Assembly (NCBI RefSeq): GCF_017348835.2
Contig: NZ_CP071375.1
Source of the DNA: Escherichia coli
Lineage (GTDB): Bacteria; Pseudomonadota; Gammaproteobacteria; Enterobacterales; Enterobacteriaceae
Direction: 5' to 3' (one strand)
DNA: 64,000 nt
Shown here: piece after piece, positions 14,516 through 36,729 of the stretch
Position numbering within the stretch: position 1 is the stretch's first letter
How the letters are laid out: the number at the start of each line of letters is the position of its first letter
Made by a program: the position numbers and the translations under genes
The notes under the pieces: generated by a model
Databases searched by the model: none
What the model was told of the DNA's origin: nothing
Seen by the model: the letters and a program-made list of their open reading frames with translations, nothing else

Positions 14516-14612
14516 AAAATAATCTCGGTGTGAGATGCTTTACGTCTTCCAAGCCACCTTCCTTGCCGTAAATGGAAAGATACATCTAATTATAGAATTT
14601 ATATGTTTTACC

Positions 14613-15188
14613 CTACGGCAGTGCTGGCCATTCAATATCCTGTGCAGTTGACGTATCAACACGGTTCAGCAATACCCGATACTTTTTCCATGCTTCCAGC
14701 AACGAGATTTCTTCCTCCGTTGCAATTTCCAGATCTGCAGCATCCTGAAGCGGCGCAATATGCTCACTGGCTACCTGCATCAGGCTGTTTTTTGTTTCTT
14801 CCGCCTCCCGGATCCGGAACAGTTTTTCTGCTTCCGTATCCTTCACCCAGGCTGTGCCGTTCCACTTCTGATATTCCCCTCCCGGCGATAACCAGGTAAC
14901 ATTTTCCGGTAACGGACCGAGTTCAGAAATAAATAACGCGTCGCCGGAAGCCACGTCATAAACCGTTTTACCCCGATGATCTTCAACGAGATGCCACGAT
15001 GCCTCATCACTGTTGAAAACAGCCACGAAGCCTGCCGGAATATCTGGCGGTGCAATATCGATACTGTTTGCTGGCAGACCTGTATGAGGCGGAATATATG
15101 CGTCACCTTCACCAATAAATTCATTAGTTCCGGCCAGCAGATTATAAATTTTTATGGTCCGTGGTTGTTCACTCATTCTGAATGCCAT
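14613..15188 (-). CDS. tfaQ: Tail fibre assembly protein
   Basis: 191 aa; adjacent to tail-fibre C-terminal module. Confidence 0.75.
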
Positions 15189-16741
15189 TATGCAAGCCTC
15201 ACAATATAGTTAAATGCGATGTTTTTGACGGTGTTTTCCGCGTTACCAGCAGCGTTAACGGTGATGGTATGTCCATGTGAACCAATCGCAACGGAGTGCG
15301 TATGAGCACCAATACCGACAGTATGTGCGTGTGCACCTGCGCTTGCAGCAGTACCCGATACAGAGTGCGTATGAGCGCCTGCAGAAGAAGTGTTAACACT
15401 GTATTTAGAGTAATCAGGTGATCCACTTCCCGGAGCACCACTGGAACCACCTGAAACAAATGTCATCGAATGGGTATGTGCACCGGCTGAAGCAGCCGTA
15501 CCGCTAACACTATGGGTATGCGCACCAGTGTTATTCGTGGATTTAGTGCCGTAATCAAACGACGATGTGGTTTTCGTCCCCAAATCCGTACTGGATACGC
15601 TGGCGCTGTGGGTGTGTGATTTAATGCCGTCCTGTTCCTGAGACAATACGGCTCGATCACTGGCGGGCTTGCCCTTAATCGTCCAGCCACGCATATCCCC
15701 TTTCGTTTTCATCCAGTCTTTGACAATCTGCACCCAGGTGGTGAACGGGCTGTACGCTGTCCAGATGTGAAAGGTCACACTGTCAGGTGGCTCAATCTCT
15801 TCACCGGATGACGAAAACCAGAGAATGCCATCACGGGTCCAGATCCCGGTCTTTTCGCAGATATAACGGGCATCAGTAAAGTCCAGCTCCTGCTGGCGGA
15901 TGACGCAGGCATTATGCTCGCAGAGATAAAACACGCTGGAGGGGTCATCCGGCGTCCATTTGAGGCCAAACGGCGTCTCTTTGTCGCCAAATTTAAGATA
16001 CTGCTCCTCCCCGCAGTGCGGGCAGGCAACATGAAAACGCATAAAATGCGGGGATTCACTGGCTGCACGCTCAATCTGGCAGGTGCCTCTCACTTTGGGC
16101 GTGGAGCCACGGATGGACTTTGGCCAGACCGAGCCTTCAATACGTTTGTCGCCAAGGAACGTCGGAGAGCCTTCCTGTTCAATATCCTCATCAAAGGCAG
16201 CAAGTTCATCATAACCCGCCACATCCACCGACTTTTCACGGTAGTTTTTTGCCGCTTTACCGCCCAGGCACCAGAAGCCACGACCATTGGAAAAACGCTT
16301 CATAGTGAGCGTGTTATCCCGGTGCTTTTTGCCATACCACGGAGCCAGCGCCAGCAGCGACGGAATATCGCGGATGGTCGGCTCAACGTGGGTTTTCATA
16401 AAGTTCTCGGCATCACCATCCGTCGGCAACCAGATAAGTGTGTTGCGCTGCTTATGCTCTATAAAGTAGACATAAACACCCAGCAGCATTTTGGAATAAC
16501 CGACACGGGCAGACTTCACCACATTCACCTCACGGATGTAGTCGCTGCCCATCGCATTCATGATGGCCCGCTGAAAGGGCAGTGTTTCCCAGCGCCCTTC
16601 CTGGTATGCGGATTCTTTCGGGAGATAGTAATTAGCATCCGCCCATTCAACGGCGGTCTGTGGCTCCGGCCTGAACAGTGAGCGAAGCCCGGCGCGGACA
16701 AAATGCCGCAGCCTGTTAACCTGACTGTTCGATATATTCAC
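15188..16741 (-). pseudogene. stfQ: Chimeric ORF: lambda gpA-like large terminase N-terminal region fused in frame to side-tail-fibre C-terminus
   Basis: N-terminal ~345 aa match lambda gpA from memory; C-terminus has GAHTHS repeats typical of lambda Stf; morphogenesis genes in between are absent. Confidence 0.75.
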
Positions 16742-17261
16742 TCAGCAACCCCGGTATCAGTTCATCCAGCGCGGCTGCTTTGTTCATGGCTTTGATGATA
16801 TCCCGTTTCAGGAAATCAACATGTCGGTTTTCCAGTTCCGGAAAACGCCGCTGCACCGACAGGGGGATCCCGTCGAGAATACTGGCAATTTCACCTGCGA
16901 TCCGCGACAGCACGAAAGTACAGAATGCGGTTTCCACCACTTCAGCGGAGTCTCTGGCATTTTTCAGTTCCTGTGCGTCGGCCTGCGCACGCGTAAGTCG
17001 ATGGCGTTCGTACTCAATAGTCCCTGGCTGGAGATCTGTCTCGCTGGCCTGCCGCAGTTCTTCAACTTCCCGGCGCAGCTTTTCGTTCTCAATTTCAGCA
17101 TCCCTTTCGGCATACCATCTTATAACGGCGGCAGAGTCATAAAGCACCTCATTACCCTTGCCACCGCCTCGCAGAACGGGCATTCCCTGTTCCTGCCAGT
17201 TCTGAATGGTACGGATACTCGCACCGAAAATGTCAGCCAGCTGCTTTTTGTTGACTTCCAT
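16716..17261 (-). CDS. nohA: Small terminase subunit, Nu1 homologue
   Basis: 181 aa, [29 protein letters not shown]...; lambda-type cos immediately upstream. Confidence 0.85.
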
Positions 17262-17438
17262 TGTTCATTCCACGGACAAAAACAGAGAAAGGAAACGACA
17301 GAGGCCAAAAAGCCCGTTTTCAGCACCTGTCGTTTCCTTTCTTTTCAGAGGGTATTTTAAATAAAAACATTAAGTTATGACGAAGAAGAACGGAAACGCC
17401 TTAAACCGGAAAATTTTCATAAATAGCGAAAACCCGCG

Positions 17439-17450
17439 AGGTCGCCGCCC
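17439..17450 (-). other. Lambda-type cosN cohesive-end sequence (GGGCGGCGACCT on minus strand) with lambda right-end-like flank
   Basis: Exact 12-mer; flanks resemble lambda left and right ends as recalled. Confidence 0.75.
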
Positions 17451-17649
17451 CGTAACCTGTCGGATCACCGGAAAGGACCCGTAAAGTGATAATGATTATC
17501 ATCTACATATCACAACGTGCGTGGAGGCCATCAAACCACGTCAAATAATCAATTATGACGCAGGTATCGTATTAATTGATCTGCATCAACTTAACGTAAA
17601 AACAACTTCAGACAATACAAATCAGCGACACTGAATACAGGGCAACCTC

Positions 17650-17844
17650 ATGTCAACGAAGAACAGAACCCGCAGAACAACAACCCGCAACATCCGCTTT
17701 CCTAACCAAATGATTGAACAAATTAACATCGCTCTTGATCAAAAAGGGTCCGGGAATTTCTCAGCCTGGGTCATTGAAGCCTGCCGCCGGAGACTAACGT
17801 CAGAAAAGAGAGCATATACATCAATCCAGAGTGATGATGGATGA
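17650..17844 (+). CDS. Small prophage protein (YnfO-like position)
   Basis: 64 aa ORF; function unknown. Confidence 0.4.
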   Translation: MSTKNRTRRTTTRNIRFPNQMIEQINIALDQKGSGNFSAWVIEACRRRLTSEKRAYTSIQSDDG

Positions 17845-18094
17845 ACATCCCGGTTTCTTTACCTTCCCTCCCTCCCCGCACAGAACTGGCGAGCGTGAGG
17901 GACCAATATGTGAGCCATAAATGCCTTATCTTCAGAAATGCAGTTGGTATCCGAACAGGACGATATTGTAAATTCACCTAAATACGAGGCATTGCTGTAG
18001 TTGAATTGCAGTACTGTATTAGCCTGACAGTGACAGAATACGATATTGACTCTGTCACTTGTGAAATGGTCAGAATGGTTAGCAGTTATGGTGA

Positions 18095-18301
18095 TCAGTC
18101 AACCAACAGGGAATAATCCTTCGTATTCTTATCGTGCTTTACTAACGCGGCCTCAATTGCCCTGAATGCTTCCAGAGATACTTGATGTTCTATACATGCA
18201 ATTACAACATCCGGGTAACCCATCGAAATGGTGCTATTAAGCATAGTTTTTACACGAACCTGCTCCTGGGAGGGGGCATCAATGTATTGATCTTTATGCA
18301 T
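18095..18301 (-). CDS. Hypothetical prophage protein
   Basis: 68 aa ORF only. Confidence 0.3.
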
Positions 18302-18596
18302 TTTGTCGCTCCATTCGTTTGCTCTTCACTTGCGGCTAAAAATATAACGTCAAATCACTCAGCATGAAAGAGTGAAAGTTTCAGCGCGTTTCCCTTACAT
18401 AATCTGTCGTTTGTATTCTCTTCAGGCATACCGGAAAGACTAGGTATTGTCACACAACCAATACCATCGACAATCGAGATTTATATCTATTCGGTAATGT
18501 TTAAATATAACAAAACCCCGTAAAAACGAGGTTTATGGGTAATTTGTATTGTTGAATAGCATCTGATGAGAAATTGATGCTAATACTATAAACATG

Positions 18597-18770
18597 CTAG
18601 ATTAAATCAATCTTGATATCATAGCTTTCAAGACCAGTCATTTTTTCCCGTGCAGTAAACTGGATACTGGTAACTTCTTTCCCGGTCTTTTTCTTAAGCT
18701 CAATGATTTTTTTTGTTATATATTCAGAAATATCTGCTTCTGTTTTTGTTTTTAACTCTTCAATGTTCAT
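18597..18770 (-). CDS. gnsB: GnsA/GnsB-family small protein (57 aa)
   Basis: MNIEELKTKTEADISEYITKKIIELKKKTGKEV...; start at the internal Met of the 88 aa ORF. Confidence 0.7.
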   Translation of the reverse strand: MNIEELKTKTEADISEYITKKIIELKKKTGKEVTSIQFTAREKMTGLESYDIKIDLI

Positions 18771-18942
18771 CATTTCCTCTTTTAGTCTGTTATGACTGTC
18801 CTGGTACACAGTAGTGTCAATTATATGGAGCAAACGTATAAAAGATAAGATGAAACATCGCAATAATCAACATACGACGGTCTAAATTTCACACAAACAG
18901 ATAAAAATGATTATCATTTATTATCAATGCATTAGAATCAAA

Positions 18943-19212
18943 TCAATTCAAGAGTCTCATTGCTGCTTCCAGAATTTCTTCTGAAGTTACATGTCGATCC
19001 GCTGCTACATAAATGACTTTATGATCTCCGGTCAGAGATGGAAACCCTGCAGCCATTACAGTGAGGTGTGTTGTTTCGCCATTTGGATATTCACGCATGA
19101 TGGTGTTAACTCCGGTCATCACTGGCACTACCATTGCTGGTTCAGAGTTAAAAAAAACTATTATTTTTTTCATAATGTTACCGTAATATGTGAGTATCCA
19201 TCGACTAGACAC
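18943..19212 (-). CDS. Small prophage protein (YnfN-like position)
   Basis: ORF only; true start may be an internal Met. Confidence 0.4.
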   Translation of the reverse strand: MSSRWILTYYGNIMKKIIVFFNSEPAMVVPVMTGVNTIMREYPNGETTHLTVMAAGFPSLTGDHKVIYVAADRHVTSEEILEAAMRLLN

Positions 19213-19444
19213 TAAGCAAAAAAGCTCCCGAAGGAGCCTTCATTTTCACTTTCTTAAATCTAACGACAGATGGCTAACATTTAAGTATTGTGAAATATTA
19301 TCAAATGTAATCATCATTGATTTACAAAAGATACATTTTGCCCCGAAAGGATTTCTGTCAGAAACATCAAAAGATGATGTTCTATACTGAGAACCATGGC
19401 AACACGGGCATCTAAAGTGAATATGGTTTGTAATATTTTCTACC

Positions 19445-19657
19445 TCAAAGTGCCACTACATGAACAGCTGCAGGGCCTTTAGGTCCGTTCTCAATACCAA
19501 ATTCGACTTCCTGATTCTCAGTTAACGTTTTGAAATCGTTGCTCTGAATAGCTGAGAAATGCACAAACACATCTTTGCTACCATCTTTCGGCGTGATGAA
19601 ACCAAAACCTTTTTCAGGGTTAAACCATTTCACTAAACCAGTCATTTTGTTAGACAT
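19445..19657 (-). CDS. cspI: Cold-shock protein CspI
   Basis: 70 aa CSD protein ([21 protein letters not shown]...); long AT-rich leader. Confidence 0.85.
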
Positions 19658-20020
19658 CATTATTACCTTTTGAAGAAGTTAGCCCTTGGGCAGAATGGTC
19701 CGAAAAAAAATATCAGAGAGAAAAACCAACAAGGAAATCTCAAGAGGTACAAATAATAAAATTATAACAATGACTGCTTCAGATAATTTTGTAACAAACC
19801 AGAACACCATTAACGCATGATTAACCAACCATAGCAAGGATTACTTTTGTAAAGAAAAACACACGAATGAAACAATAGCTTTATTTATTAATAAAACGTG
19901 TCATTCTGTCTAATGACCTTTTATCTTACCCTTAAGATTTCAAGGATTTTGACTCATGGAAGAGTCCTTTTTATTTAAATTTCACATTCAGCGCTAAAAA
20001 TAATCCGATTTAATATTAAT

Positions 20021-21050
<1,030 letters not shown>

Positions 21051-21371
21051 GGATATTTATCAGGATTTATCGGCTTCAAATCCCCGGATATGTTAAATCT
21101 TACCTCACCAGTGATGGGCACTGGCGGGAGGAGGATGTCAATCTGATAAACACAGAGGTGACTATGGATTACACAAATCTACCAAAACAAACTTTTGCTG
21201 ATTTAATCGCACTCAGGCAAGCAGTCGTAGCTCTAATCAACTTGTTGCCGGAGAAGGAAAAGGAATTAGTTAAAGCGCTTCTTAACAGAACTGCCGCCGA
21301 TTTTTCATCATATCCACTGACAGATGACCTTGCGGACCTTCCTGAATTAATTGCAGCGTCCGCCATTAAGC

Positions 21372-21923
21372 TTACTGAAGAGATTTACCCTCCTCAAAAA
21401 TCTTCACAAAATTCCTGCGAGTAACTTCAATGCAATAATCGTAAAACGCCGCAAACTGCTCATCGCGGCGTTTTTTTTCATCTTCAGAAGGAATCAGCAC
21501 CGACAATTTTTTATTCAGATCAGCGACGCTGCCCTCCAGTTTTTCAATGGGCGATTCAATATCATCTTTTTCTGACCGCAATGCCGTCGGTGGCGTCTTC
21601 AGAGAACCAGTAATTCTTCCCGGTAGCTTTCCTTTGTAGGTTATCCACACATTCTGCGCCTCTAAAATTATGGGGCGCTTTTCCGGCGACTGCTCATCCC
21701 CTTCACATAACCCGGCAGCAACATCCAGGAAGACCTGTCTGATGCTCATTCTGGCTGCTGCCTCATAAAACTCCAGCGCGGCACCTTCAACACGGTCCAG
21801 CGAGATGTCCAGGTCAAAAATTTCACCGTCAAAGCGTTCTTTGTCCTGTAATGCTAAAGTTACCGTAACTTTATTCTCAAAATTGCGGATCCCTTTCACA
21901 ATCAGTTCATAGTTTTGAGTCAT
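21372..21923 (-). CDS. Prophage protein between holin and lysozyme (YdfR position; possibly DUF1327-like)
   Basis: 183 aa ORF; family assignment from memory only. Confidence 0.45.
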   Translation of the reverse strand: MTQNYELIVKGIRNFENKVTVTLALQDKERFDGEIFDLDISLDRVEGAALEFYEAAARMSIRQVFLDVAAGLCEGDEQSPEKRPIILEAQNVWITYKGKLPGRITGSLKTPPTALRSEKDDIESPIEKLEGSVADLNKKLSVLIPSEDEKKRRDEQFAAFYDYCIEVTRRNFVKIFEEGKSLQ

Positions 21924-21927
21924 TGAA

Positions 21928-22143
21928 TTACTCTCCTCTCGCAGCCTTACGCCTGTCTTCTTTAATCTTGAAATAAAGATTTGTCAGATACGTCAGCAGG
22001 CCAAAAACCAGGCTACCCAGCACACCGATTGCAGCCCACTGTGACGGAGTTACTTTATCGAGTAACTGCAATGCCCAGAAACCAGCATTACCCGCCGATG
22101 TGCCATAGGCAACACCTGTTGTTAACTTATCCATTGATTTCAT
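21928..22143 (-). CDS. essQ: Holin
   Basis: 71 aa from MKSMDKL with TM segments; upstream of the lysozyme gene. Confidence 0.7.
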
Positions 22144-22363
22144 ATCCTCACCCCGATGTACACGGATGGTGCAATATGTTTGAAAAGATCGGAGTCTACG
22201 GGGTAGTTTTGACAGCACACGTTGTTCTCAACGGCGCTAAAGAAACATACACATTAAAAATGTGAGTAATTATTTTTTAAAGAAAGTCATATATAAAATA
22301 ATAATACGAGAAATGTTTTCATATTTAGTGTACTGTATACGGCCATTTATACAGGAAAAGCCT

Positions 22364-22534
22364 ATGTCAGAACGTAAAGACTCAAAATCACGCCGTAATT
22401 ATCTCGTTAAATGTTCCTGCCCAAACTGCACCCAAGAGTCAGAACACAGTTTTTCAAGAGTACAAAAAGGTGCCCTTTTGATCTGCCCTCATTGCAACAA
22501 AGTATTCCAGACAAATCTTAAAGCTGTAGCCTGA
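22364..22534 (+). CDS. Small zinc-ribbon protein (CxxC...CxxC)
   Basis: CPNCTQ...CPHCNK motifs; start uncertain. Confidence 0.35.
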   Translation: MSERKDSKSRRNYLVKCSCPNCTQESEHSFSRVQKGALLICPHCNKVFQTNLKAVA

Positions 22535-22597
22535 TTGATTTTATTAGTAACAAGTATTTTTTATATTTTAATAATATATTTAAAGCAGATAATAAAA

Positions 22598-22615
22598 AAC
22601 CCGCCTGAGCGGGTT
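22598..22615. terminator. Bidirectional hairpin terminator (aacccgc ctga gcgggtt)
   Basis: Flanked by an A-run on plus and therefore a U-run on minus; downstream of cspB. Confidence 0.55.
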
Positions 22616-22897
22616 TGAGATTGTGGTGCTTTTTGTGGGAGTCATCCACTTACGCACTTTGTTTTGCCATGCCAGCAGTTAGCTTCTGCTGTAAAACTAT
22701 TCATGCAGCAAACCTGCACTTCACCACAATGGTTAGCATACTTTTCCTGATTAAGATTTTGCCAAATATGCTGGCCATTGTTTCATGTATTGGACCTCCT
22801 TAATTTTCATTAAAGAGATCCAATATTCACTACTCTGTCCGTATCTCTACTCAGGCATCAGCCTTCTTCGTTATCGTATACAGACGAGCGATGAATT

Positions 22898-23110
22898 TTA
22901 ATCAGTAATGATGACATTTGCTGCTGCAGGACCTTTAGCACCACTCTCTATAGAGAAGGTAACCTTTTGACCTTCAAATAAGGTTCGATAATTATCATTC
23001 TGAATCGCAGAAAAATGCACAAACACATCTTTACTACCATCAACAGGAGAAATAAAGCCGAAACCTTTATCAGCGTTAAACCATTTTACTAAACCAGTCA
23101 TTTTATTTGA
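22898..23110 (-). CDS. cspB: Cold-shock protein CspB
   Basis: [23 protein letters not shown]... CSD protein. Confidence 0.85.
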
Positions 23111-23433
23111 CATTCTACATTCCTTAACTTGAGCCTTTCGGCATAAATGGTTTGCATAACAGAAACGACTTCGTACTTAATTGGAGAGACTCAAAGAAGG
23201 AATAAGTGAATAACACCTGAAATGAGAACTGCTTTAGTAAACTACTTCGTATATCGTCTGTTCTTCAAACCGACGCAGTCATTAACTCATAGTTGAACAT
23301 ATGAAGCAATGTTTATTTTAGACATCCAGCCACCTTCAACCCTATCAAAAAAGTAGTTTTCTCCAGGAACGTGTGTATGGTGCACCAGGTTATCAGTATT
23401 AAGGAGTTTTTCTGTCCCCTAAAATGACAGGAA

Positions 23434-23650
23434 TTGTCAAAAACTTTGACTACAAAAGCAGCAAAGGTCTTATATTCCCATCCGATGGCGTATCGATGCC
23501 CAGCTTCACGTTTCAGCTCTCAATCTTCGAGATGCAGAAGAAATTACCACAGGATTACGCGTGGAATTTTGCCGGATAAATGGTTCGCGTGGACCTTCAA
23601 CTGCCAATGTTTATCCCGGGATGAGATTCAATATCTCTATTGCCCCATTT
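23434..23650 (+). pseudogene. cspF: CspF/CspH-like cold-shock gene remnant (frameshifted)
   Basis: N-terminus [22 protein letters not shown], then CSD C-terminus ([19 protein letters not shown]) in another frame. Confidence 0.6.
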
Positions 23651-23656
23651 AAAGCA

Positions 23657-23692
23657 CAAAAACCCGCTTATAAGCGGGTTTTCTACTTTTTT
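23657..23692. terminator. Bidirectional terminator (aaacccgcttataagcgggttt)
   Basis: Palindromic hairpin with T-runs on both strands, between the cspF remnant and quuQ. Confidence 0.6.
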
Positions 23693-23788
23693 CTAAACGT
23701 CGGATACACAAAGCCCATCGTTGAGAAAATCTTATCCATGTTTTTTGAAAAATGCAAACATCATGTCGCCATCTTCAGCAAAAATCAT

Positions 23789-24493
23789 TTATCTCGTCAC
23801 CTTCCTCAATTGCGCTTCCGCGTATGCTTCTTCCTGCCAGCACTTTGTTACCAGTTTACCAATGACGTCAGCATACCCCTTATACCACTGATAATCGGTC
23901 AGGTCTGGTACCAGCTTCTGGACATGACGTCGTGCCAGCGTGGTCGGTAAACGACTAAACCGGTTTCCATTACAACGCCCACAAATCTTATATACCGGTA
24001 CGCCATGAAACCGGGTTCTTTTTTCATCCAGAACAATCCCTTTACCCTTACACCCTCTGCACGCTGTGCTGACTTCGCCCTTACCATGGCAATGCTGACA
24101 TAGTTCCTTTACCCATTCTTCCTTGATTACAGATTCCCCGCGTCTGTAGTGTTTCACCACTTCGCGCAATACATTATAAAATCCCGTACCTGAACAATGC
24201 TCACAGCGAGCCTTACTTGCCGCAGACCTAGAGTAATCAGCAAAGGCAAAATTCACGAGGTAAGGAATAATCTGTAACCGGATTTCTTCACTCAATTTGT
24301 TCAATGTCGGGTTATCCAGTGCCATCGCGTAATTTAGCAGGCCTTCAATCGCAAACTGAGGGTCCTGAACACCAACTTTTGCCAGAAATAAGGCCAACCC
24401 AAGTGGTGCTTTCGACTGCACCATCCCCTGCGCTGCCATTACATCCGTAATTGTTAAACAACCGGTGCCTGTCGCTGGAGCGTCATCGCTCAA
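23789..24493 (-). CDS. quuQ: Q-like late-gene antiterminator
   Basis: 234 aa with Cys-rich zinc-finger region (CEHCSGTG...CQHCHGKG...CRGCKGKG). Confidence 0.75.
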
Positions 24494-24555
24494 TTTTGGA
24501 GATTTTGGGGAGTTGAACCGCCCCGGGTTTCCTGGAGAGTGTTTTATCTGTGAAC

Positions 24556-25443
24556 TCAGGCTGCCAGATCATTATTTCCGATGGAAGCATAATAAGCTTT
24601 TTCTGCTTCTGCCGGAGGAATATGGCCCAGCCTTTCCAGCAATCGTCGATTGTTATACCAGTCCACCCACGTTAGTGTGGCCAGTTCCACTTCTGTCCGG
24701 TTTTTCCAGCTCTTACGGTGTATTACCTCCGCTTTGTAAAGACCATTGATGCTCTCAGCCATCGCGTTGTCATACGAGTCGCCAGTACTCCCTGTTGATG
24801 CCAGTAATCCGGCTTCCTTAAGCCGCTGCGTGTAGGCCAGCGATACATACTGAGAACCTTTATCACTGTGATGGATTGTGCCGGACGGCCGACGGGCCCA
24901 CAACGCCTGCTCCAGTGCATCCAGCACGAATGTTGTTTCCATGGATGATGAGACCTGCCATCCCACGATGTATCCGGCGAACACATCAATGATGAACGCC
25001 ACATAAACGAAGCCCTGCCATGTGCTTACCCAGGTAAAATCAGCCACCCACAACTGGTCTGGACGTTCTGCCACGAACTGACGGTTTACGCGGTCGCATG
25101 CGGCAACGGCTTTCCGGCTGACGGTAGTGCGGACCTTTTTACCCCGGAGAACACCGGCAAGTCCCATAACTGCCATGAGACGTGCCACAGTGCATCTGGC
25201 CACTCTGATACCTTCCCGTAACAACTGACGCCAGACTTTACGCACACCGTATACCTGGTGATTTTCATCGTATACGCGCTGTATCTCTTTCTTCAGCCAG
25301 TCATCGTGCTGCGCACGGGCACTGCGTTTATCCGGATGATGTCGCTGTTGCTGACAATGGTAATACGTTGACGGGGCAATATGCAGTTCGCTGCATACCG
25401 GTCCGACCCCGTACTGCTCACGCAGCTTATCCAGCAGTGGCAT
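24556..25443 (-). CDS. IS3-family transposase OrfB (DDE catalytic domain)
   Basis: 295 aa integrase-core ORF. Confidence 0.85.
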   Translation of the reverse strand: MPLLDKLREQYGVGPVCSELHIAPSTYYHCQQQRHHPDKRSARAQHDDWLKKEIQRVYDENHQVYGVRKVWRQLLREGIRVARCTVARLMAVMGLAGVLRGKKVRTTVSRKAVAACDRVNRQFVAERPDQLWVADFTWVSTWQGFVYVAFIIDVFAGYIVGWQVSSSMETTFVLDALEQALWARRPSGTIHHSDKGSQYVSLAYTQRLKEAGLLASTGSTGDSYDNAMAESINGLYKAEVIHRKSWKNRTEVELATLTWVDWYNNRRLLERLGHIPPAEAEKAYYASIGNNDLAA

Positions 25444-25769
25444 TATTTTTTCCAGAGGCGGTCGAACTCCGCCTTCGCAAAATAAGCGGAAGCCTGGCGA
25501 AGGATATCGTTACTGCGGCGCAGTTCACGATTTTCACGTTCCAGCTCTTTCAGACGCTGACGTTCAGCGGTGGTGAGTCCACCATCACCACTCCCGGTAT
25601 CCCGCTCATGCTGGCGAACCCAGACACGCAGAGTCTCCGGCGTACAGCCAATCTTTGGGGCAATGGAACAAATTGCCGCCCACTGTGAGTCATATTCATC
25701 CTGACTTTCCAGAACCATACGAATCGCCCGCTGACGGACTTCGGGGGAAAAACGAGTATTTTTAGTCAT
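25443..25769 (-). CDS. IS3-family transposase OrfA (HTH + leucine zipper)
   Basis: 108 aa, [33 protein letters not shown]... Confidence 0.85.
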
Positions 25770-25874
25770 CCTGTTTACCTCTTTCTCAGGGAGTTTAGTC
25801 TCCAGGATTTCCGGGGCGGTTCATTAAAGATTTTTTTGTGCATGCCGATAGTGCTTTTTTAAAAGGAGAAATCT

Positions 25875-26207
25875 ATGTCTGTCACAATTCAGGGAAATAC
25901 CTCAACCGTTATTTCAAACAACTCCGCCCCGGAAGGAACATCAGAAATAGCCAAAATCACAAGACAAATTCAGGTGCTGACTGAAAAGCTTGGGAAAATC
26001 TCATCGGAAGAGGGGATGACGACACAGCAGAAAAAAGAAATGGCTGCATTGGTACAGAAGCAAATTGAAAGCCTCAGGGCTCAACTGGAGCAGTTGTTAA
26101 GGCAGCAGGCAGAGAAAAAGAATGAAGACGCGACAGTTCAGCCTGATAAAAAAGAAGAGAAAAAAGACGATACAAATACCGCTGGCACCATTGATATTTA
26201 CGTCTAA
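25875..26207 (+). CDS. flxA: FlxA-like protein (110 aa)
   Basis: Length and coiled-coil-like sequence; Qin context. Confidence 0.6.
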   Translation: MSVTIQGNTSTVISNNSAPEGTSEIAKITRQIQVLTEKLGKISSEEGMTTQQKKEMAALVQKQIESLRAQLEQLLRQQAEKKNEDATVQPDKKEEKKDDTNTAGTIDIYV

Positions 26208-26221
26208 GTGACAGCCGTATT

Positions 26222-26244
26222 GTGGCCCTCATCGGGCCACTTTT
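26222..26244 (+). terminator. Rho-independent terminator after flxA
   Basis: gtggccc tcatc gggccac followed by TTTT. Confidence 0.65.
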
Positions 26245-26643
26245 CGCCATCAGCCTTTTCTTTAAAGACATATTATCTTTGTATCATTTCTGATAGTTAA
26301 CATTACAAGATATAAGTAATGGACGCACTCCCAATTAGTCTATTTAAATCGCCACGAGTTTAACTGACAACCCATGATCAATTATGAATTGCAACTATTT
26401 CTGTAGTCACTTTTGTGGGGACAGTCCACAAAACTGCCAACTTCCGCTTCTTGCTCTTAGCGGACATTAGCATAGGCTATTTACCATAACGCCTCATTAC
26501 GCGCACCGCCCAGACTGACTCAGCGCGTTTCTGGCATATCCCCGGTAAAACAAGTAACAAACCACCCGAAAATGAACACCAGAAACGCGACTTAAGAATC
26601 TACCCTATGAATGGATATGCACTCAACCGAATCGATCTTGGTT

Positions 26644-27985
26644 TCAATCTTTTTTATCGGGATCAGGCTTCTTTTTAGGTAACTTCGGGGGCTTAACTTG
26701 CTGATGACTTTGCGTTCGGCGCGTAAGCCAGGGATGGTCAGCTTTAGGTTTAACATAGTATTTTGAGCGTAAATCAATACGGGCATTATCCACTCGTTCA
26801 TGGACACTCTTTTCATCATCCAGTGGTATAGGCTCCGGGCCATCAACATACTTTTCCCAGCCCAGCGCTTTCCCGTCATACAGAACGTTAATTTCACCGT
26901 CAAAGTTCTCGCATACAGTAACAACCGAATGCCTAAGTCGATATCCCCGGCCCTCACTGCGTACCTGAAACGCACTGCTTTTGTACTGGAAAGTGAGATT
27001 TTTAGACAGAACGCGCTTCGCCTGTAGGCTGAAGATATAACCCAGTTCCTCTTCAGAATGGTGCACATCAAGATGAGCATTATCAGTAGTACGAGGCGAC
27101 GTAGCGAACCGGTTGTTATAGGCTTCAATAAAGGTCGGCAACCATGCATTTGCTGTTTCAATATCACTGATATTCTGAAGCCGCATTTCTTTGACCAGCC
27201 TGTCCTGTAGTGTCTGATTGGCGCGCTCTACCCGCCCTTTTGCCTGCGGGCTGTTGGCATGGATTGGCTCGATGCCCAGTGTCTTTATCGCACGAGTGAA
27301 CTGGGTCAGCTCACCTTCCCGCTCTGGGTTATTTACCCTGAATATACTGTGTCTATCAGAGTAGAGAGCGAGCGGTACGCCATGATCATTAAGGTAACCC
27401 CGGAGGGTTTCCATGTAAGCCCGGGTTGTTTCAGCAGGCACAAAACGCAACGCCATCAACGCACTGGTGGCATCATCAATGAAAACGATCAGTGTACATC
27501 TGGGGCCTCGATTTTCAAACCAGTCATGAGGTGAGCCATCAATCTGGATCAGTTCACCGTAAGATGGTCGTCGCATGCGGCGTTGATATATACGGGCAAT
27601 TTTACGACGGCGTTCACGCCATACCCCCCTCTTCTATCATCCACTTTCTGAGAGTTTCAACGGATAAAGATAAACCGTGTATCTCGCGCAATTTTTCGCA
27701 CGCAAACGTAGGTCCAAAATCAGCGTAACGGCCTTTGAGGAGTGAAATTACTGTTGCTCTGAATTCAGTAGAAAAGGAATTATTAGGACGCTTTCCACGT
27801 CGGTGGGAAACCAGACCAGAAGGCCCTTCATTTCTATACCGTTGCACCAGACGTTTAACCTGCCGAATAGAAATGCCAATGCGTGCCGCAGCTTGTTCCT
27901 GAGTAATATGTCGATTAATTGACTCCTGAATAATCTGAAGTCGGTGGAGTTCCTTATGACTCATCGTAACAGTTTCTTTGGTCAT
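26644..27985 (-). pseudogene. DDE transposase (integrase-core; IS481/ISNCY-like) split by a frameshift
   Basis: N-terminal HTH part 27614-27985 and catalytic part 26644-27576 are in different frames; junction at a C6/G6 run around 27624-27629. Confidence 0.65.
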
Positions 27986-29651
27986 GAAAAATCCCCCAGA
28001 GAATTGTCTGGGGACATTTTAGAATGGTTCAAAGGGGACATTACAGCTTGGTGTTAACAATAGCCTGCTTCTCCTTGCCTTTCGGCACGTAAGAGGCTAA
28101 CCTACATGTGTCTGGCATGAAATTGGCCTCAGATTAATGTTAAGCGTCTTGCAGGACGCGTAATGTTAACTGGGGCTTTTCTCTACCTGCCGTTGGTGTT
28201 CGTGCCCGAGGCAGATAGCCTCAAGCACCCGCAGTCATTCTACTTAACTAAGATTTCCCCGCAAACCGTTTTTGTCCAGCACAGTAAATATCCAACTAAA
28301 CCAATGGAGTTCGCTGTATTTACCGCCAGTATTCAATGCACATGACCGCCATGAACACCCCTAAAAAAAGGGCATTTATATATCCAAATATTAATATCAA
28401 AACATCAACTTTTTCCATATACCTTGCTGTGAAGATGATGGGCATACATGATGCGAACAACCAGAACGCAACAAACAAAAACTGCAATGCGTTTTTCATT
28501 ATTCCTCCTACAATCAATGTGCAATTACATTTAAACACACCTCAATTTGGCCGGACATATAAATATCTAAACCAGAAAAAATCACTTACATAGCGTTACA
28601 AACTCTTTAGTCTAAAGGTTCATCGTAAAACATTCCCCATACTTATCAGTCCGTTCCGCGCCAGGTAGCTCATTGCCTTATCTGGCAACCTGTAATCAGG
28701 TTTCCGCTTTTTCAGTTGGCTGGTCGTTTAACCGACATAGTTAACCCATTAATCTAGTTGCCGGATGTTGGTGGATTTTCGCGTTTTAGTTGTTCATAAA
28801 AGTGCACAGCTTTAACCAATTCTTCTGATGTAACCGGGACTGGTGAGGCAGTGAATAAGGCCTGAATTTGATAGTTCGGCCTGTCGTTACAATCCTCTTT
28901 TTTCGGTACATATTTCCAGTCACCAGACCACTACTTCCCCTGAAAGTCCGTAACGCCTTTTTTCACGTAGCGATATCGCCATGTCACTGGTTTTGCTTGC
29001 CCCGCCGTTTCATGCCCTTCCTGATAATTAATCTCGCTCATTCATCGCCCCACTCATCACAATATGCTTCGACCGGAGTTTTTCCCGCTTCATAGTCATC
29101 ACGCTAGGATTCGACATCAGCAGCACTTCCACCGCGTAACTCACCATAGTCCATTAATAGTTCATCCCGCTCTTCAAAACTGATGTTATATTTAGCTGAA
29201 CAAAAATCAGCCACTTTGTTCTTCCTCATCGTCTTTTATTTCGTGGTATGAGTAATTGCAGTAGTTAAAGAAAATTTCTTATGCTCCGTCATGAATTTCA
29301 TCAGGTGTTGCGTCATCGTCCACTTCGAATACATCCTCAAAATCTCCACCAGCTATTCCCGTTTCAATAATAATTTTGAACTTTCGCATTTCACTACCGC
29401 CCTTTCGGGCGGCCTCCTGATGTTCTGAGGGTGCAGAAATCCATCCGGTTAAGGATTAAGTTTTATTTACAGAACTGAATTTAATTATTCAGATATACGT
29501 ATCTGTAACCTTACGAATCTACTCACTGGATGCCTCTTTCATAAAAATAATCCAGTGGGTTTTATCGTTTTTTCCCTGTTCGTTGACAGATAACAGGCTT
29601 TCTATCTGTCAGTGCCAGAATCTGGCTTACCGGTATTTGCGTTTCATTCCA

Positions 29652-30008
29652 TTAAAAAATCAGAACGCCGTGCGGCCTCAACACCCGAAAAGCTTCTTTA
29701 AATCTCTGTCGCAAATCATCACGCCAGGCATCTTTATTCAGCCGTCCATATTTCTTTCCCATCCAGGCGTTATCACCAACACGCTCAAGATGCGGAGGGT
29801 CTAATACAACCATCGAAAAAGATGCGTCTGCAAATGATAATGCACGAAAATCTGCGATAATGTCAGGGCTGATAATCAAGCGTCTCCCATTGCGTAATGT
29901 GTATCCTTCTTTTCTGATATCGCTAAATATCGCCCGTTCGTCAGACTTATCGAACCAGAACATGCGGCTGCCACAGCACATATCAAGAATGGTTGCCGGT
30001 GCACTCAC
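29652..30008 (-). CDS. DNA methyltransferase fragment (DPPH-type motif)
   Basis: 118 aa with VVLDPPHL motif; short for a complete MTase. Confidence 0.45.
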   Translation of the reverse strand: MSAPATILDMCCGSRMFWFDKSDERAIFSDIRKEGYTLRNGRRLIISPDIIADFRALSFADASFSMVVLDPPHLERVGDNAWMGKKYGRLNKDAWRDDLRQRFKEAFRVLRPHGVLIF

Positions 30009-30535
30009 TGCGCCACGTCCTGAAAATTACCCTGATAGAAAGCCAGTATGCGCTGCATAACTTCGCTCTTCCGGCACTCGCGACAGATTATGTTTAGGCG
30101 ACTGTCGTAGCGACGTATTTCTCCGTCAGGTGATGACCAGATAAGGTCCGGATCAACCACAGCAGGTTTCTTCACCTTTGCCCTCGAGAGTTTTTTGCGG
30201 GCGTTTTGCCAGTCCTTACGCGCCTGTTCAGAGGGGAATAACCCGTATCTGATATCCCAAAAAATGAAACCGCACCGGAAGCTGAACCATCTGTAGAGCG
30301 TGAGGGGCCGTTCTATTTCCTCTTCGCAGATAAGGACGGAGAAAAATACGGTCGCGCAAACAAACTTTCTGGTCTGGATAAGGCACTGGCTGCTGGCGCC
30401 ACTGAAATCACAAAAGAAGAATATTTTGCCCGAAAAAATGGCACATACACGGGCTTACCGCAAAATGTAGATACCGCTGAAGATTCAGAACAACCAGAGC
30501 CGATAAAAGTTACCGCTGACGAAGTAAACAAAATT

Positions 30536-31615
30536 ATGCAGGCAGCCAATATCAGCCAGCCTGACGCCGATAAGTTGCTTGCTGCATCACGTGGTGAATT
30601 TGTTGAAGGGATTAGTGACCCGAATGATCCGAAATGGGTTAAGGGGATCCAGACCCGCGATTCTGTGAACCAGAACCAGCATGAATCGGAACGGAACTAC
30701 CAAAAAGCGGAACAAAACAGCCCAAATGCGTTACAAAACGAGCCAGAAACGAAACAGCCTGAATCAGTGGCGCAACAGGAAGTGGAAAAAGTCTGCACCG
30801 CCTGCGGTCAGACCGGCGGCGGCAACTGCCCTGATTGTGGCGCGGTGATGGGCGACGCAACATACCAAGAAACATTCGATGAAGAGTATCAGGTTGAAGT
30901 TCAGGAAGATGATCCGGAGGAAATGGAAGGCGCTGAACATCCACACAAGGAGAACGCTGGCGGCAATCAGCATCACGATAGCGATAATGAAACTGGCGAG
31001 ACGGCAGATCACTCAATTAAGGTGAACGGTCATCACGAAATCACATCCACCAGCAGGACGTGTGACCATCTAATGATCGACCTTGAAACCATGGGAAAAA
31101 ATCCTGATGCCCCGATCATCTCAATAGGTGCAATATTTTTCGATCCGCAAACCGGAGATATGGGACCGGAATTTAGTAAGACTATCGATCTGGAAACTGC
31201 TGGCGGAGTCATTGATCGGGACACCATTAAATGGTGGCTTAAGCAATCACGCGAAGCGCAATCGGCCATTATGACCGATGAAATCCCGTTAGATGATGCA
31301 CTGTTACAATTGCGGGAATTTATCGACGAAAACTCCGGTGAATTTTTTGTTCAGGTTTGGGGAAATGGAGCCAACTTCGACAACACGATTTTGCGCCGTT
31401 CATACGAACGGCAGGGGATCCCCTGCCCGTGGCGTTACTACAACGATCGCGATGTACGCACAATCGTTGAGCTGGGGAAAGCCATAGACTTCGATGCCAG
31501 AACGGCTATTCCATTCGAAGGTGAGCGCCATAATGCACTTGATGACGCCCGTTACCAGGCAAAATACGTTTCAGTTATCTGGCAAAAACTGATCCCGAGT
31601 CAGGCTGATTCTTAA
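30536..31615 (+). CDS. Prophage protein with C-terminal DEDDh-type 3'-5' exonuclease domain
   Basis: MIDLETMG... and HNALDDARY motifs; acidic low-complexity N-region; the frame is open upstream without an ATG. Confidence 0.6.
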
Positions 31616-31687
31616 TGTTCAACTGTCGCCGGTTGTGACTGGTATTCTGCAACCGGCGCTCGTCTGATGTAAGAGATAAAGAAATCG

Positions 31688-31939
31688 ATGAGCGAAGTAA
31701 TCATGATTGTCTCTCCCGGCAAATGGGTATCCGAAGAGCAGTTAATTGCGCTGAAAGGAATAAAAAAAGGTACGTTAAAAAAGGCCCGGGAAAAATCGTT
31801 TATGGAAGGAAGGGAATATAAGCATGTCGCTCATGACGGTATGCCATGGGATAACAGTCCATGCTTTTACAACCTGGAAGAAATTGATCGCTGGATTGAG
31901 CGCCAGGCATCAGCAAGACCAAGACGTCATCTTACTTGA
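31688..31939 (+). CDS. Excisionase-like protein
   Basis: 83 aa basic ORF immediately upstream of the integrase. Confidence 0.55.
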   Translation: MSEVIMIVSPGKWVSEEQLIALKGIKKGTLKKAREKSFMEGREYKHVAHDGMPWDNSPCFYNLEEIDRWIERQASARPRRHLT

Positions 31940-31958
31940 CTAAAAGCCACACTAACTA

Positions 31959-33254
31959 ATGAGAGAAGTTGAAATGAAATATCCGACAGGCGTGGAAAAC
32001 CATGGAGGGAAATTACGTATCTGGTTTGTTTATAAAGGCGTAAGAGTCAGGGAAAACCTGGGGGTTCCTGACACAGCAAAAAACAGGCGCGTTGCAGGTG
32101 AGCTACGCGCCTCTGTTTGTTACGCAATAAAAACTGGTGTTTTCGACTATGCAAAACAGTTTCCCTCCTCACGCAATCTGGAAAAATTTGGTGAGACTCG
32201 ACAAGATTTAACCATAAAAGAACTGGCTGAAAAATTTCTGGCACTGAAAGAAACTGAAGTCGCAAAAACATCACTCAACACATACCGTGCCGTCATCAAA
32301 AATATCCTGAGCATAATCGGTGAAAAAAATCTTGCCTCATCGATTAATAAAGAAAAATTACTGGAGGTTCGTAAAGAGCTACTGACTGGATACCAGATCC
32401 CCAAAAGTAACTATATTGTTACACAACCAGGGAGATCGGCTGTAACTGTAAATAATTACATGACAAATCTTAACGCCGTGTTCCAGTTTGGTGTTGATAA
32501 CGGTTACCTGGCAGATAACCCGTTTAAGGGGATCTCGCCATTAAAGGAATCAAGAACCATTCCGGATCCTCTTTCGCGGGAGGAATTCATCCGTCTTATC
32601 GATGCGTGCAGAAATCAGCAAGCCAAAAATTTATGGTGTGTTTCTGTTTATACTGGCGTTCGCCCTGGTGAGCTGTGTGCACTTGGATGGGAGGACATAG
32701 ATCTGAAAAATGGAACAATGATGATCAGGAGAAATTTAGCAAAAGACCGTTTCACGGTACCAAAAACACAGGCGGGAACCAATCGGGTCATTCATCTTAT
32801 TAAGCCAGCAATCGACGCTCTCCGGAGTCAGATGACATTAACGAGACTGAGCAAAGAGCATATCATTGATGTTCACCTCAGAGAGTATGGCAGAACAGAA
32901 AAACATAAATGCACCTTTGTTTTTCAACCTGAAGTGTCAGCGAGAGTAAAAAATTATGGTGACCATTTTACCGTTGACTCAATAAGGCAGATGTGGGACG
33001 CAGCGATAAAACGTGCCGGACTCCGCCATCGAAAATCATATCAGTCGAGACATACTTATGCCTGCTGGTCGCTGACAGCTGGTGCTAATCCGGCATTTAT
33101 AGCAAACCAGATGGGCCATGCAGATGCGCAAATGGTATTTCAGGTATACGGAAAATGGATGTCTGAAAACAATAATGCACAGGTAGCTTTGTTAAATACA
33201 CAGTTAAGCGAGTTTGCCCCAACCATGCCCCATAACGAAGCAATGAAAAATTAA
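31959..33254 (+). CDS. Tyrosine-type site-specific integrase (apparently intact)
   Basis: 431 aa; C-terminal catalytic region with R...HxxR...Y context; ~40 bp from the att repeat. Confidence 0.85.
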   Translation: MREVEMKYPTGVENHGGKLRIWFVYKGVRVRENLGVPDTAKNRRVAGELRASVCYAIKTGVFDYAKQFPSSRNLEKFGETRQDLTIKELAEKFLALKETEVAKTSLNTYRAVIKNILSIIGEKNLASSINKEKLLEVRKELLTGYQIPKSNYIVTQPGRSAVTVNNYMTNLNAVFQFGVDNGYLADNPFKGISPLKESRTIPDPLSREEFIRLIDACRNQQAKNLWCVSVYTGVRPGELCALGWEDIDLKNGTMMIRRNLAKDRFTVPKTQAGTNRVIHLIKPAIDALRSQMTLTRLSKEHIIDVHLREYGRTEKHKCTFVFQPEVSARVKNYGDHFTVDSIRQMWDAAIKRAGLRHRKSYQSRHTYACWSLTAGANPAFIANQMGHADAQMVFQVYGKWMSENNNAQVALLNTQLSEFAPTMPHNEAMKN

Positions 33255-33291
33255 TTTAATATTTATCAAATAGTTGACACGTATGACTCTT

Positions 33292-33306
33292 GAAATCCAT
33301 AAATTC
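33292..33306. repeat. Prophage att core copy (gaaatccataaattc)
   Basis: Direct repeat of 12580-12594. Confidence 0.55.
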
Positions 33307-33374
33307 AAGCGCAGTGCCCAGCCATCCCGATACTGCTGCTTTCACCAAATCCTTAGTGCTTCTTTCGTGTTTTT
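33292..33374 (-). pseudogene. 5' fragment of ydfJ (N-terminal 28 codons) separated from the gene body by the prophage
   Basis: Minus-strand MTIEKHERSTKDLVKAAVSGWLGTALEFMDF runs into the att repeat; continues logically into MDFQLYSLG at 12588. Confidence 0.55.
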
Positions 33375-33441
33375 CTATTGTCATAATGGTTATCTCTAAA
33401 AAAGAGGTAAGATGCGTACTACTTACTCGCAGTTATTGGTA

Positions 33442-34461
33442 TTATTCAGAAAAAGTGAGTAAGACTTTGCAGCAATGTTTTTGATCCTGTTCAAATAAAC
33501 TAATGGCATCAGCAACATGCTGGAAATCAAACGTATGGGTAATTAATTTTTCTGGTTTAATTAACCCTTTACTTAACCAGTCGATAACGACCGGAAATTT
33601 ATTTGCATTTAAGCGTGAAGAGAAAATAGAGAGTTCTTTTCCGGTAATTCCTTGCTGAATCACTTCAGACGGTTCACTGGAGAACCCCATCAATACAATA
33701 CGTGCCGCTGGAGAAGCCAGCGTTACGGCCTCTTTCAGGATAGAAGGATGACAAGCCGCATCGATAATTAATGTCGGCTTGATGCCTTTTTCAGTGAAAA
33801 TCTCGCCAAGCGGTGTCTGGCTGTTATTAATCGCCCAGTCAGCCCCGCTCTCTTTCGCTTTTTCCAGTCGTTCATCAATGCGATCGGCAACAATCACATT
33901 TTTAACGTTATAGACGCCTTTTAATACCTGAACGATCGTCAGGCCGATTGGACCGGCACCGTAAACCAGAACGGTATCATTTTCAGTCGGTTGACCATGA
34001 CCGGTTACGTTAGCCGCAATGGTAAAAGGTTCGATCATCACCGCATATTGATCGGCCACTGCTTCAGGAATTTTCCACGCATTTTTTGCCGGAACCACAG
34101 CATATTCACTGAAACCACCGTCAACGTGCACACCTAATACAGCGAGTGTCGTACAAACGTTCGGCTTACCTATAGAGCACGGATAGCAATGACCACAGCT
34201 GACCACCGGATCGACAGCAACACGTTCACCGACTCTGGTGCTTTCCACACCTTCACCCACCGCATCAATGACGCCAAAGAATTCATGTCCAATGACGCGC
34301 GGATATTTCGCAAAAGGATTATGCCCACGATAAATATGGCTATCTGAACCACAAATTCCGGCAAGTTTTACTTTTACTCGTACTTCACCCGCTGACGGGG
34401 TGGGTATTTCACGTTCGACAATCGCCAGTTGATTCGGTTTTTCAATTAATATGCTTTTCAT
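33442..34461 (-). CDS. rspB: Zn-dependent alcohol-dehydrogenase-like starvation-sensing protein RspB
   Basis: GHE...C zinc-ADH signature; 339 aa from MKSIL. Confidence 0.85.
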   Translation of the reverse strand: MKSILIEKPNQLAIVEREIPTPSAGEVRVKVKLAGICGSDSHIYRGHNPFAKYPRVIGHEFFGVIDAVGEGVESTRVGERVAVDPVVSCGHCYPCSIGKPNVCTTLAVLGVHVDGGFSEYAVVPAKNAWKIPEAVADQYAVMIEPFTIAANVTGHGQPTENDTVLVYGAGPIGLTIVQVLKGVYNVKNVIVADRIDERLEKAKESGADWAINNSQTPLGEIFTEKGIKPTLIIDAACHPSILKEAVTLASPAARIVLMGFSSEPSEVIQQGITGKELSIFSSRLNANKFPVVIDWLSKGLIKPEKLITHTFDFQHVADAISLFEQDQKHCCKVLLTFSE

Positions 34462-34472
34462 TATCTTACTCC

Positions 34473-35687
34473 TTACCAGTTCCACAGCGTGCCATCTTCC
34501 AGACGTGCGACTGGCAGATAAGCAGGTTCATAGGGATATTTCGCCGCCAGCTTTTCATCGAATTCGATGCCAAGACCCGGTTTGTCTCCCGGATGCATAT
34601 AGCCGTTATCGAAAGTCCAGTTGTGCGGGAAGACTTCGAGCATTTGTTCGGAATAACCCATGTATTCCTGGACACCGAAATTGGGGACCCACAGATCAAA
34701 GTGCAGCGCCGCAGCCATGCAGACTGGTGACAAATCGGAAGGACCGTGTGAGCCAGTACGTACCTGATACAGCGAAGCAAAATCGGCAATCCGGCGCATA
34801 CCGGTAATTCCGCCTGCATGGGTCAGCGTGGTGCGGATATAATCGATAAGTTGCTCTTCAATCAGTTGCTTGCAGTCCCAGATGCTGTTGAAGACTTCAC
34901 CCACTGCGATGGGTGTGACGGTATGTTGGCGAATGAGACGGAAGCATTCCTGGTTTTCCGCAGGCGTCGGGTCTTCCATCCAGAACATGCGATAATCTTC
35001 AATGCTTTTACCAAAGCGCGCCGCTTCAATAGGCGTTAAGCGATGGTGCATGTCATGCAGCAAATGTTCATTAAAACCAAACTTGTTACGTACCGCGTCA
35101 AACAATTTCGGCATGAAATCGAGGTATTTCTCCGTCGACCACAGCTGCTCTTCCGGCCACTGTCCTTTGGTTGCGGGTTCATAAGCCAGACCTTTACCTT
35201 TCGACATGCCGTAGGTGGTTTTCATACCAGGGATTCCGCACTGCACGCGGATGGCTTTGAATCCAAGCTCCTGATGACGGGCATAATCATCCAGAGCTTC
35301 ATCAATACTGTGACCGGTGGTATGGCAATAAACCATCCCCCCTTCACGAGACGCGCCGCCGAGTAACTGGTAAAGCGGCATGTTGGCAGCTTTGGCTTTA
35401 ATATCCCACAGCGCCATATCAACCGCTGAAATGGCCGACATCGTAACCGGACCGCGACGCCAGTAAGCACCTTTATAGAAAAACTGCCAGATATCTTCGA
35501 TACGGTGCGCATCGCGACCAATAAGCTGCGGACAAAGGTGATCCTGCAAATAAGAGGCCACGGAAAGCTCACGTCCATTGAGGGTGGCATCCCCAAGGCC
35601 CGTAATACCGTCCTCAGTGGTGATTTTTAATGTGACGAAATTACGTCCCGGACAGGTAACAAAAACTTCAGCCTTTACGATCTTCAT
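34473..35687 (-). CDS. rspA: Enolase-superfamily mannonate dehydratase RspA
   Basis: 404 aa from [10 protein letters not shown]. Confidence 0.85.
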
Positions 35688-35892
35688 GTTCGATTCCTTG
35701 CATCGCTTGTCGTGATGCATGAAATCTACGCAACTGAGCTACTACCATACAAGTATGAAGATCGAAAAAAGCCGGAGTGATCGCAAAAAAAGGCGTATAT
35801 TTGCGCTGTGAATGGTTGACAAAAGATGAAATAGAATACCTTTTGTCAGCTGACACTTCCTCGTATCTTATTGATAAAATGGATTTATGTTC

Positions 35893-36219: not shown

Positions 36220-36353
36220 CTTTGTCTCTTATTGACATCATGTATAGTTATAGGGCGACATAATATCATCAATATAAACACCCTCCTGGTACGTTTTGCG
36301 TTCGCAGTGGATGGTGTAGAATCACCTTTAATCATTCATACAGGGAATGAATT

Positions 36354-36695: not shown

Positions 36696-36729
36696 CCTGT
36701 TATTGATTTAAGGAATGTAAGGACACGTT

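Follow-up and report, generated by a model that had tools for sequence, protein, structure and literature searches.

An intact IS629 copy without a target-site duplication at the site of a 3,139-bp deletion in a Qin-like prophage of Escherichia coli

Results

A deletion marked by an intact IS element

In the analyzed E. coli DNA (a single stretch of 64 kb, called the window in the following), one intact IS629 copy was found in place of 3,139 bp that reach from the 5′ end of ydfT to the flxA promoter in related Qin-like prophages, and it is not flanked by a target-site duplication. A preliminary description had proposed an IS-associated deletion or recombination instead of a simple insertion at this site, and this was borne out by the combination of an intact IS629 without duplication and the loss of 3,139 bp. 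The mechanism that we regard as the most likely, with about an even chance of being correct, is the insertion of IS629 followed by a transposase-dependent adjacent deletion.

The element is a complete copy of IS629

The following features of the element were identified:

24514–25823, minus strand: complete IS629 (direct reading; 100% identity to E. coli copies; OrfB equal to the IS629 OrfB of Sakai)
24514–24538: IRR, the orfB-distal terminal inverted repeat, abutting the ydfT remnant (alignment of the IS ends)
25799–25823: IRL, the terminal inverted repeat upstream of orfA, abutting the flxA promoter (alignment of the IS ends)
25443–25769, minus strand: orfA, 108 aa (ORF list; exact protein in the public collection; N-terminal match to the IS3 transposase model)
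24556–25443, minus strand: orfB, 295 aa, the DDE catalytic part, reached via a −1 frameshift from orfA (ORF list; NCBIfam; Sakai match)
25372–25488, minus strand: ALIL frameshift-stimulating pseudoknot, spanning the A6 run (Rfam RF01497, 120.3 bits versus a gathering score of 50)
25446–25451, minus strand: A6 slippery run (read from the sequence)

The coordinates of the 1310-bp element are exact and were read directly. The copy starts with TGAACCGCCCCGG and ends with CCGGGGCGGTTCA, and end-to-end alignment revealed that its termini form an imperfect inverted repeat, in which the 13 outermost bases are identical, followed by 9 identities in the next 12. Elements of the IS3 family have a length of about 1.3 kb and imperfect terminal inverted repeats of the form 5′-TG...CA-3′, and both features are present here. 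The two reading frames orfA and orfB are intact and overlap at the A6 run, so that the family's organization of two frames, a slippery run, and a stimulating structure is also complete. OrfB scored 311.8 bits with the NCBIfam IS3 transposase model NF033516 (cut-off 160), and OrfA covers positions 1–86 of the same profile. The preliminary description of a 1310-bp element with both terminal inverted repeats and intact OrfA and OrfB was confirmed.

At the protein level, OrfB is identical, residue for residue, to the protein named “IS629 transposase OrfB” in strain O157:H7 Sakai, and several complete E. coli genomes contain copies that match the whole element at 100% of the nucleotides. RefSeq copies labelled IS1203 are about 95–96% identical to it. 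The length, the terminal repeats, and the arrangement of orfA and orfB with the A run and the ALIL pseudoknot are the same as in the known IS629, a member of the IS3 family with the isoforms IS1203 and IS3411 that is found in E. coli O157:H7 and Shigella. The element itself does not differ from known IS629; only its context, the lack of a duplication, is unusual. Judged by its sequence, the element is IS629 itself, of the ordinary kind, and the copy is apparently functional. The earlier designation “IS629-like” was too weak, as the element is IS629 proper. It is the only IS629 copy in the 64-kb window.

The flanks carry no duplication and 3,139 bp are missing

The two junctions were compared with those of strain F2_81, which has the uninterrupted locus:

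24511–24516: left junction, ..AGT/TGA..; the native continuation is AATATTTTGG
25821–25826: right junction, ..TCA/TTA..

The element is flanked by ..GATTTTGGGGAGT on the left and by TTAAAGATTTTTTT.. on the right. The left junction reads GGGGAGT followed by TGAACCGCC, and the right junction reads GGCGGTTCA followed by TTAAAGATT. The terminal A of IS629 at the right junction may belong to the IS or to the native DNA, and the breakpoint is therefore ambiguous by 1 nt. A simple insertion is recognized by a direct duplication of 3–4 bp; here, AGT (GAGT) on the left faces TTA (TTAA) on the right, and no repeat occurs in any register of 3–4 bp. That the flanking triplets agt and tta differ had been noticed before and was confirmed. 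As a positive control, six other full-length IS629 copies were inspected in fetched loci. Clean 3-bp duplications (CTT, AAG, AAC, AAA) were present in four cases, and the two copies without a duplication were both situated at obvious rearrangements. The absence of a 3–4 bp duplication is a property of the insertion event and not of the IS629 element. In four O157 genomes, matching duplications have been found at just 21 of 47 IS629 sites (PMC3271280).

A comparison with Qin-like prophages without the IS had been chosen beforehand as the way to define the deletion, and F2_81 and K-12 served this purpose. The flanks of the element align to both genomes across a gap of 3,139 bp in each, which comprises positions 10515–13653 of the F2_81 locus and 1,643,214–1,646,352 of K-12 MG1655. 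The flanks are identical in F2_81, and thus an intact IS is located at a novel joint, with a one-sided contiguous loss relative to an isogenic empty site. The lost DNA contains the first 28 nt of ydfT, ydfU, an ORF of 92 aa, rem, hokD, relE, relB, ydfV, and 150 bp of spacer. The segment has no match elsewhere in the 64-kb window, and a translocation instead of a loss was rejected for this reason. With mismatched flanks and 3,139 bp gone, neither the identical 3–4 bp repeats nor the complete gene content that would have spoken for a simple insertion was found.

The genes of the K-12 Qin map between the Q antiterminator gene and flxA are therefore missing, as had been proposed, and the loss extends further than described, because the Q gene itself has been shortened by its first 9 codons (28 nt), and ydfU, rem, and ydfV are gone as well. 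The earlier claim that a hokD-relBE-dicB segment is absent at the IS site could be retained for hokD, relE, and relB but not for dicB, which lies outside the interval, about 2.9 kb beyond flxA in K-12. The window has no equivalent of the K-12 block ydfX-dicC-dicA-ydfABC-dicF-dicB-ydfD-ydfE, and no dic genes are annotated in the IS-free relative F2_81. That dicB is missing is therefore a mosaic difference of the prophage lineage in its own right and not an effect of IS629. The cryptic prophage Qin of K-12 is collinear with the window from essD through cspB-cspF-ydfT and again from flxA to ydfW, with 97–99.9% identity. Beyond ydfW, K-12 Qin has ydfX, dicC, dicA, dicF, dicB, and ydfE, whereas the lineage of the window has other genes, an ISEsa1-like transposase pseudogene, and an intact integrase. 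This replacement of the early region is independent of IS629.

The flanks of the element are intact in many complete E. coli genomes, but the arrangement of the window, or either of its junctions, was found in none of 5,426 complete E. coli genomes. Three E. coli matches that apparently shared the junctions turned out to contain IS629-like copies elsewhere (in ydfW, in ydfU, and further right), which had been merged by the search tool.

Near-clonal relatives with an empty site and with a larger deletion

Two near-clonal relatives were informative. Strain F2_81 (pig, Australia) has the full ydfT-ydfU-rem-hokD-relE-relB-ydfV-flxA segment and no IS within 10 kb. It does not differ from the window at a single position in 18247–24513 and 25824–37820. 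All 28 substitutions between the two are confined to 13058–18246 (pinQ-tfaQ-terminase-nohA), with none in the other approximately 33 kb compared. From this distribution, the region 13058–18246 is a recombined patch, in which the alleles of the window are common to PE164.

Strain PE164 (pig, China; NZ_CP114128.1) differs from the window by 2 SNPs in 48 kb, one of them in the 24.5 kb to the left of the element and the other in the 23.8 kb to its right. It also carries an IS629 at this place (PE164 locus 10511–11820, equivalent to 24510 and 27107 of the window), in the orientation opposite to that of the window copy. The left junction, ..GATTTTGGG followed by TGAACC.., is 4 bp short of the window junction, and the right junction, at 27107 of the window, is inside the ISEsa1-like transposase pseudogene. 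The flanks are GGG and AAC, and thus a duplication is missing here as well. The deletion in PE164 corresponds to 10511–14937 of the F2_81 locus, has a size of 4,427 bp, and wholly contains the deletion of the window. The two elements differ at four clustered positions (160, 183, 184, and 244), and PE164 holds copies identical to that of the window elsewhere. Because of the four clustered differences, the PE164 element is a different IS629 copy and not the window copy inverted. Given the inverted orientation, the offset of 4 bp, and the different variant, the PE164 structure is more than a lengthened deletion beside one shared insertion. PE164 and the window have the ydfT end in common while their far ends differ, which makes the ydfT side the shared anchor.

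The chromosomes of the two strains contain 26 (F2_81) and 32 (PE164) IS629 matches, and IS629 is clearly active in this clone. In F2_81, IS629 is found near ynfC/ynfE at positions 1226–2535 and 8950–10259 of the F2_81 locus and as a partial copy at the start of the locus, so that three lie within 12 kb. One of them is a simple insertion in ynfC (duplication AAA), and the remaining ones are found together with a truncated ynfE and foreign genes. Each strain thus shows its own, independent remodelling of this region by IS629.

PE164 also bears on the question of whether the arrangement in the window might be an assembly artefact, in which two real IS629 copies that bracket the 3.1-kb segment were collapsed into one. 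IS copies are the commonest cause of misjoins, and the window junction occurs in only one independent assembly, GCA_019365205.1, whose contig ends after 76 nt of IS629 and thus leaves the right-hand join unconfirmed. However, the complete genome of the near-clonal PE164 has a comparable IS-bounded deletion at the same place, and the 3.1-kb segment is absent from the whole window. An artefact is thus highly improbable.

Insertion, adjacent deletion, and competing routes

The history that we favor would have started with an insertion of IS629 into the defective Qin-like prophage, most likely into the 5′ end of ydfT. By the usual copy-out-paste-in reaction, a duplication of 3–4 bp would have been generated, and the intact right side of such a simple insertion would read GGCGGTTCA followed by (G)AGTAATATTTTGG. 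In a later, transposase-dependent step, an adjacent deletion on the IRL side would have removed the 3,139 bp and, with them, the duplicated bases at the right-hand end. IS629 would have remained intact, fused to the DNA 1 nt upstream of the FliA promoter of flxA. The IS-excision enhancer IEE may have promoted the deletion. We infer that the insertion preceded the deletion, that the ydfT junction is the original one, and that the loss was driven by the transposase and not by homologous recombination.

Several published observations provide precedents for this order of events. All 14 duplication-less deletions next to IS150, another IS3-family element, in the Lenski lines arose where the IS was already at the position, and they often grew with time (PMC11708052). 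The IS3 transposase led to adjacent deletions in a plasmid assay, and more of them were observed with IEE (PMC8860574). Next to IS629, IEE-dependent deletions range in size between a few nt and more than 40 kb (PMC9943667). Adjacent deletions by IS150 in the Lenski lines and by IS3 and IS629 with IEE share an intact IS, a missing duplication, and a one-sided loss with the case described here, and a further parallel is the larger deletion of PE164 that includes that of the window. In contrast to these deletions, the ancestral simple insertion is undocumented at the window site, and the simple extension of one deletion does not predict the inverted copy of PE164 with its offset of 4 bp. Published models are at odds on how copy-out-paste-in elements make adjacent deletions (bioRxiv 10.1101/2023.06.07.543989).

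The main rival is a route that starts from two independent IS629 insertions of the same orientation, in the 5′ end of ydfT and directly in front of the flxA promoter. RecA-dependent recombination between them would have deleted one copy together with the 3.1 kb. The left and right flanks of the surviving IS629 would then stem from different copies, and the left side of the hypothetical insertion at the flxA site would read AATACGA(TTA) followed by TGAACCGCC. Such recombination gives exactly the intact IS, the mismatched flanks, and the collinear flanks that were observed, and recombination between IS copies is a recognized cause of missing duplications (PMC11708052). In addition, the lineage has about 30 IS629 copies, and the three near ynfC/ynfE within 12 kb in F2_81 show that dense local insertion occurs. 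Against this, neither parental insertion was seen among the 5,426 complete genomes, although a short-lived intermediate could escape such sampling. When PE164 is included, two near-clonal strains must have received four insertions within 4.4 kb, with a distance of 4 bp between two of these sites. Moreover, every such case in one time-resolved data set on the IS3 family was an adjacent deletion (PMC11708052). Adjacent deletion and two-copy recombination are indistinguishable by sequence, because both leave exactly this structure. Adjacent deletion is favored because the ydfT end is shared in the sister strains while the far ends differ, and because one IS and one deletion per strain suffice, compared with two insertions and a recombination per strain. 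The two-copy route is the less probable of the two.

An intermediate, that is, IS629 at either junction with a duplication and with intact neighbors, was not found in the 5,426 complete E. coli genomes and the draft contigs examined, in which this clone is thinly sampled. Look-ups of exact proteins were also used: YdfU of F2_81 led to intact loci only, and the ydfT product of PE164 was absent from the record. FlxA was rejected as a route to intermediates, as the exact protein is far too common. The unfound intermediate would be expected if the arrival of IS629 and the loss of the 3.1 kb had occurred in the same reaction and a simple insertion had never existed, either by insertion into a break formed during the deletion or by an attack of the IS ends on two separated sites. 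For some IS movements that are coupled to large rearrangements, it has been argued that no duplication is made (PMC11708052). However, this proposal rests on IS5 and IS481, and the IS3-family cases of the same study are all two-step; furthermore, little weight attaches to an intermediate that was not found among sparsely sampled relatives. We consider a one-step event unlikely, and less probable than either of the two routes above.

Junctions 4 bp apart in two strains

The junctions of the window and PE164 are offset by 4 bp, which is the length of an IS629 duplication. It is unlikely that chance alone placed IS629 junctions of opposite orientation 4 bp apart in two near-clonal strains. The 5′ end of ydfT might be a preferred docking point of IS629 ends, or IS629 might insert beside the end of a resident copy; we regard this as a rather doubtful conjecture. 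Targeted insertion beside IS ends has been described for IS911, as cited in PMC7986276. If it applied here, an inverted second copy that landed 4 bp beyond the end of the resident one would give rise to a palindrome of 2.6 kb, and the resolution of this palindrome could yield the PE164 form from a window-like form. A single canonical IS3-family strand transfer (an attack of IRL 3–4 nt outside IRR) was also considered as the step that leads from the window form to the PE164 junction, but it fails. Such an attack gives no simple deletion, because the ends are in direct orientation and the attack is between strands.

Consequences for ydfT and flxA

The genes and the promoter next to the element are as follows:

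23789–24513, minus strand: remnant of ydfT (Q antiterminator), minus the first 28 nt (9 codons) and the upstream region (translation; alignment to intact ydfT, including F2_81 and K-12)
25825–25852, plus strand: FliA (sigma-28) promoter of flxA, TAAAGATTTTTTTGTGCATGCCGATAGT, intact, starting 1 nt past the IS end (motif match; string identity to a table in PMC4183435)
25875–26207, plus strand: flxA, 110 aa, intact (ORF list; flxA annotation in relatives)

The ydfT remnant has lost its start codon, 9 codons, and all upstream sequence. On the other side, flxA retains its whole FliA promoter, which has been mapped experimentally, because IS629 ends 1 nt before TAAAGATTTTTTTGTGCATGCCGATAGT. The sigma-28-type motif has one match only in the window, at 25825–25852, and the table of FliA binding sites of Fitzgerald et al. 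lists the same exact string for flxA (PMC4183435). A sigma-70 hybrid promoter at the IS junctions was not predicted above the expectation from shuffled sequences.

A Q protein of 216 aa, named in O26:H11 11368, reflects a short start-site call, and intact ydfT genes receive the same call. Database entries for “partial” YdfT proteins (239 and 240 aa) seemed to indicate further IS junctions at the same two positions; they are assembly ends, because the contigs have scattered starts (ACTCCCC, CTCCCC, TCCCC, CCCC, CCC) or follow scaffold gaps and contain no IS sequence. Many unrelated draft and metagenome assemblies break or have an N gap in the approximately 60 nt that separate codon 10 of ydfT from the 3′ end of ydfU. 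Situated where the IS junctions lie, this zone is probably a branch point of assembly graphs between prophage paralogues. In a contig from a human gut metagenome, the ydfT gene of another Qin-like prophage is interrupted about 55 nt further in by an unrelated sequence (contig positions 1–126), which may resemble the end of IS3.

Significance and further features of the window

Both IS629 and this type of IS-associated deletion are already known, and no new kind of element is involved. A porcine E. coli clone has been deprived of its toxin modules hokD and relBE, and the late-gene antiterminator of Qin has been disabled, while flxA and its FliA promoter have been kept. This is one more natural case of IS629-associated genome reduction in cryptic prophages and has little import beyond annotation. 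Nevertheless, F2_81 with its intact locus, the window with a deletion of 3.1 kb, and PE164 with one of 4.4 kb and an inverted IS might represent a small natural series for the study of how deletions are made and extended by IS3-family elements.

Several further features of the window were observed. At 28059–28230 (minus strand), a sok antitoxin RNA was predicted with Rfam (99.8 bits versus 59), and six-frame translation revealed no intact Hok frame. This is probably a decayed hok/sok locus that is distinct from hokD. The ISNCY/ISEsa1-like transposase gene at 26644–27985 (minus strand) is split into ORFs of 123 aa and 310 aa and is a pseudogene in the annotation of relatives. The ynfF gene at 41099–43524 is split into ORFs of 203 aa and 624 aa; the PE164 annotation lists it as frameshifted, which makes it a pseudogene in this clone. 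The cspF and rrrQ genes are frameshifted according to the annotation in relatives. Lastly, a cspA-type thermoregulator RNA (Rfam RF01766, 158.8 bits) was detected at 22882–23274 (minus strand), covering the cspB gene and its leader.
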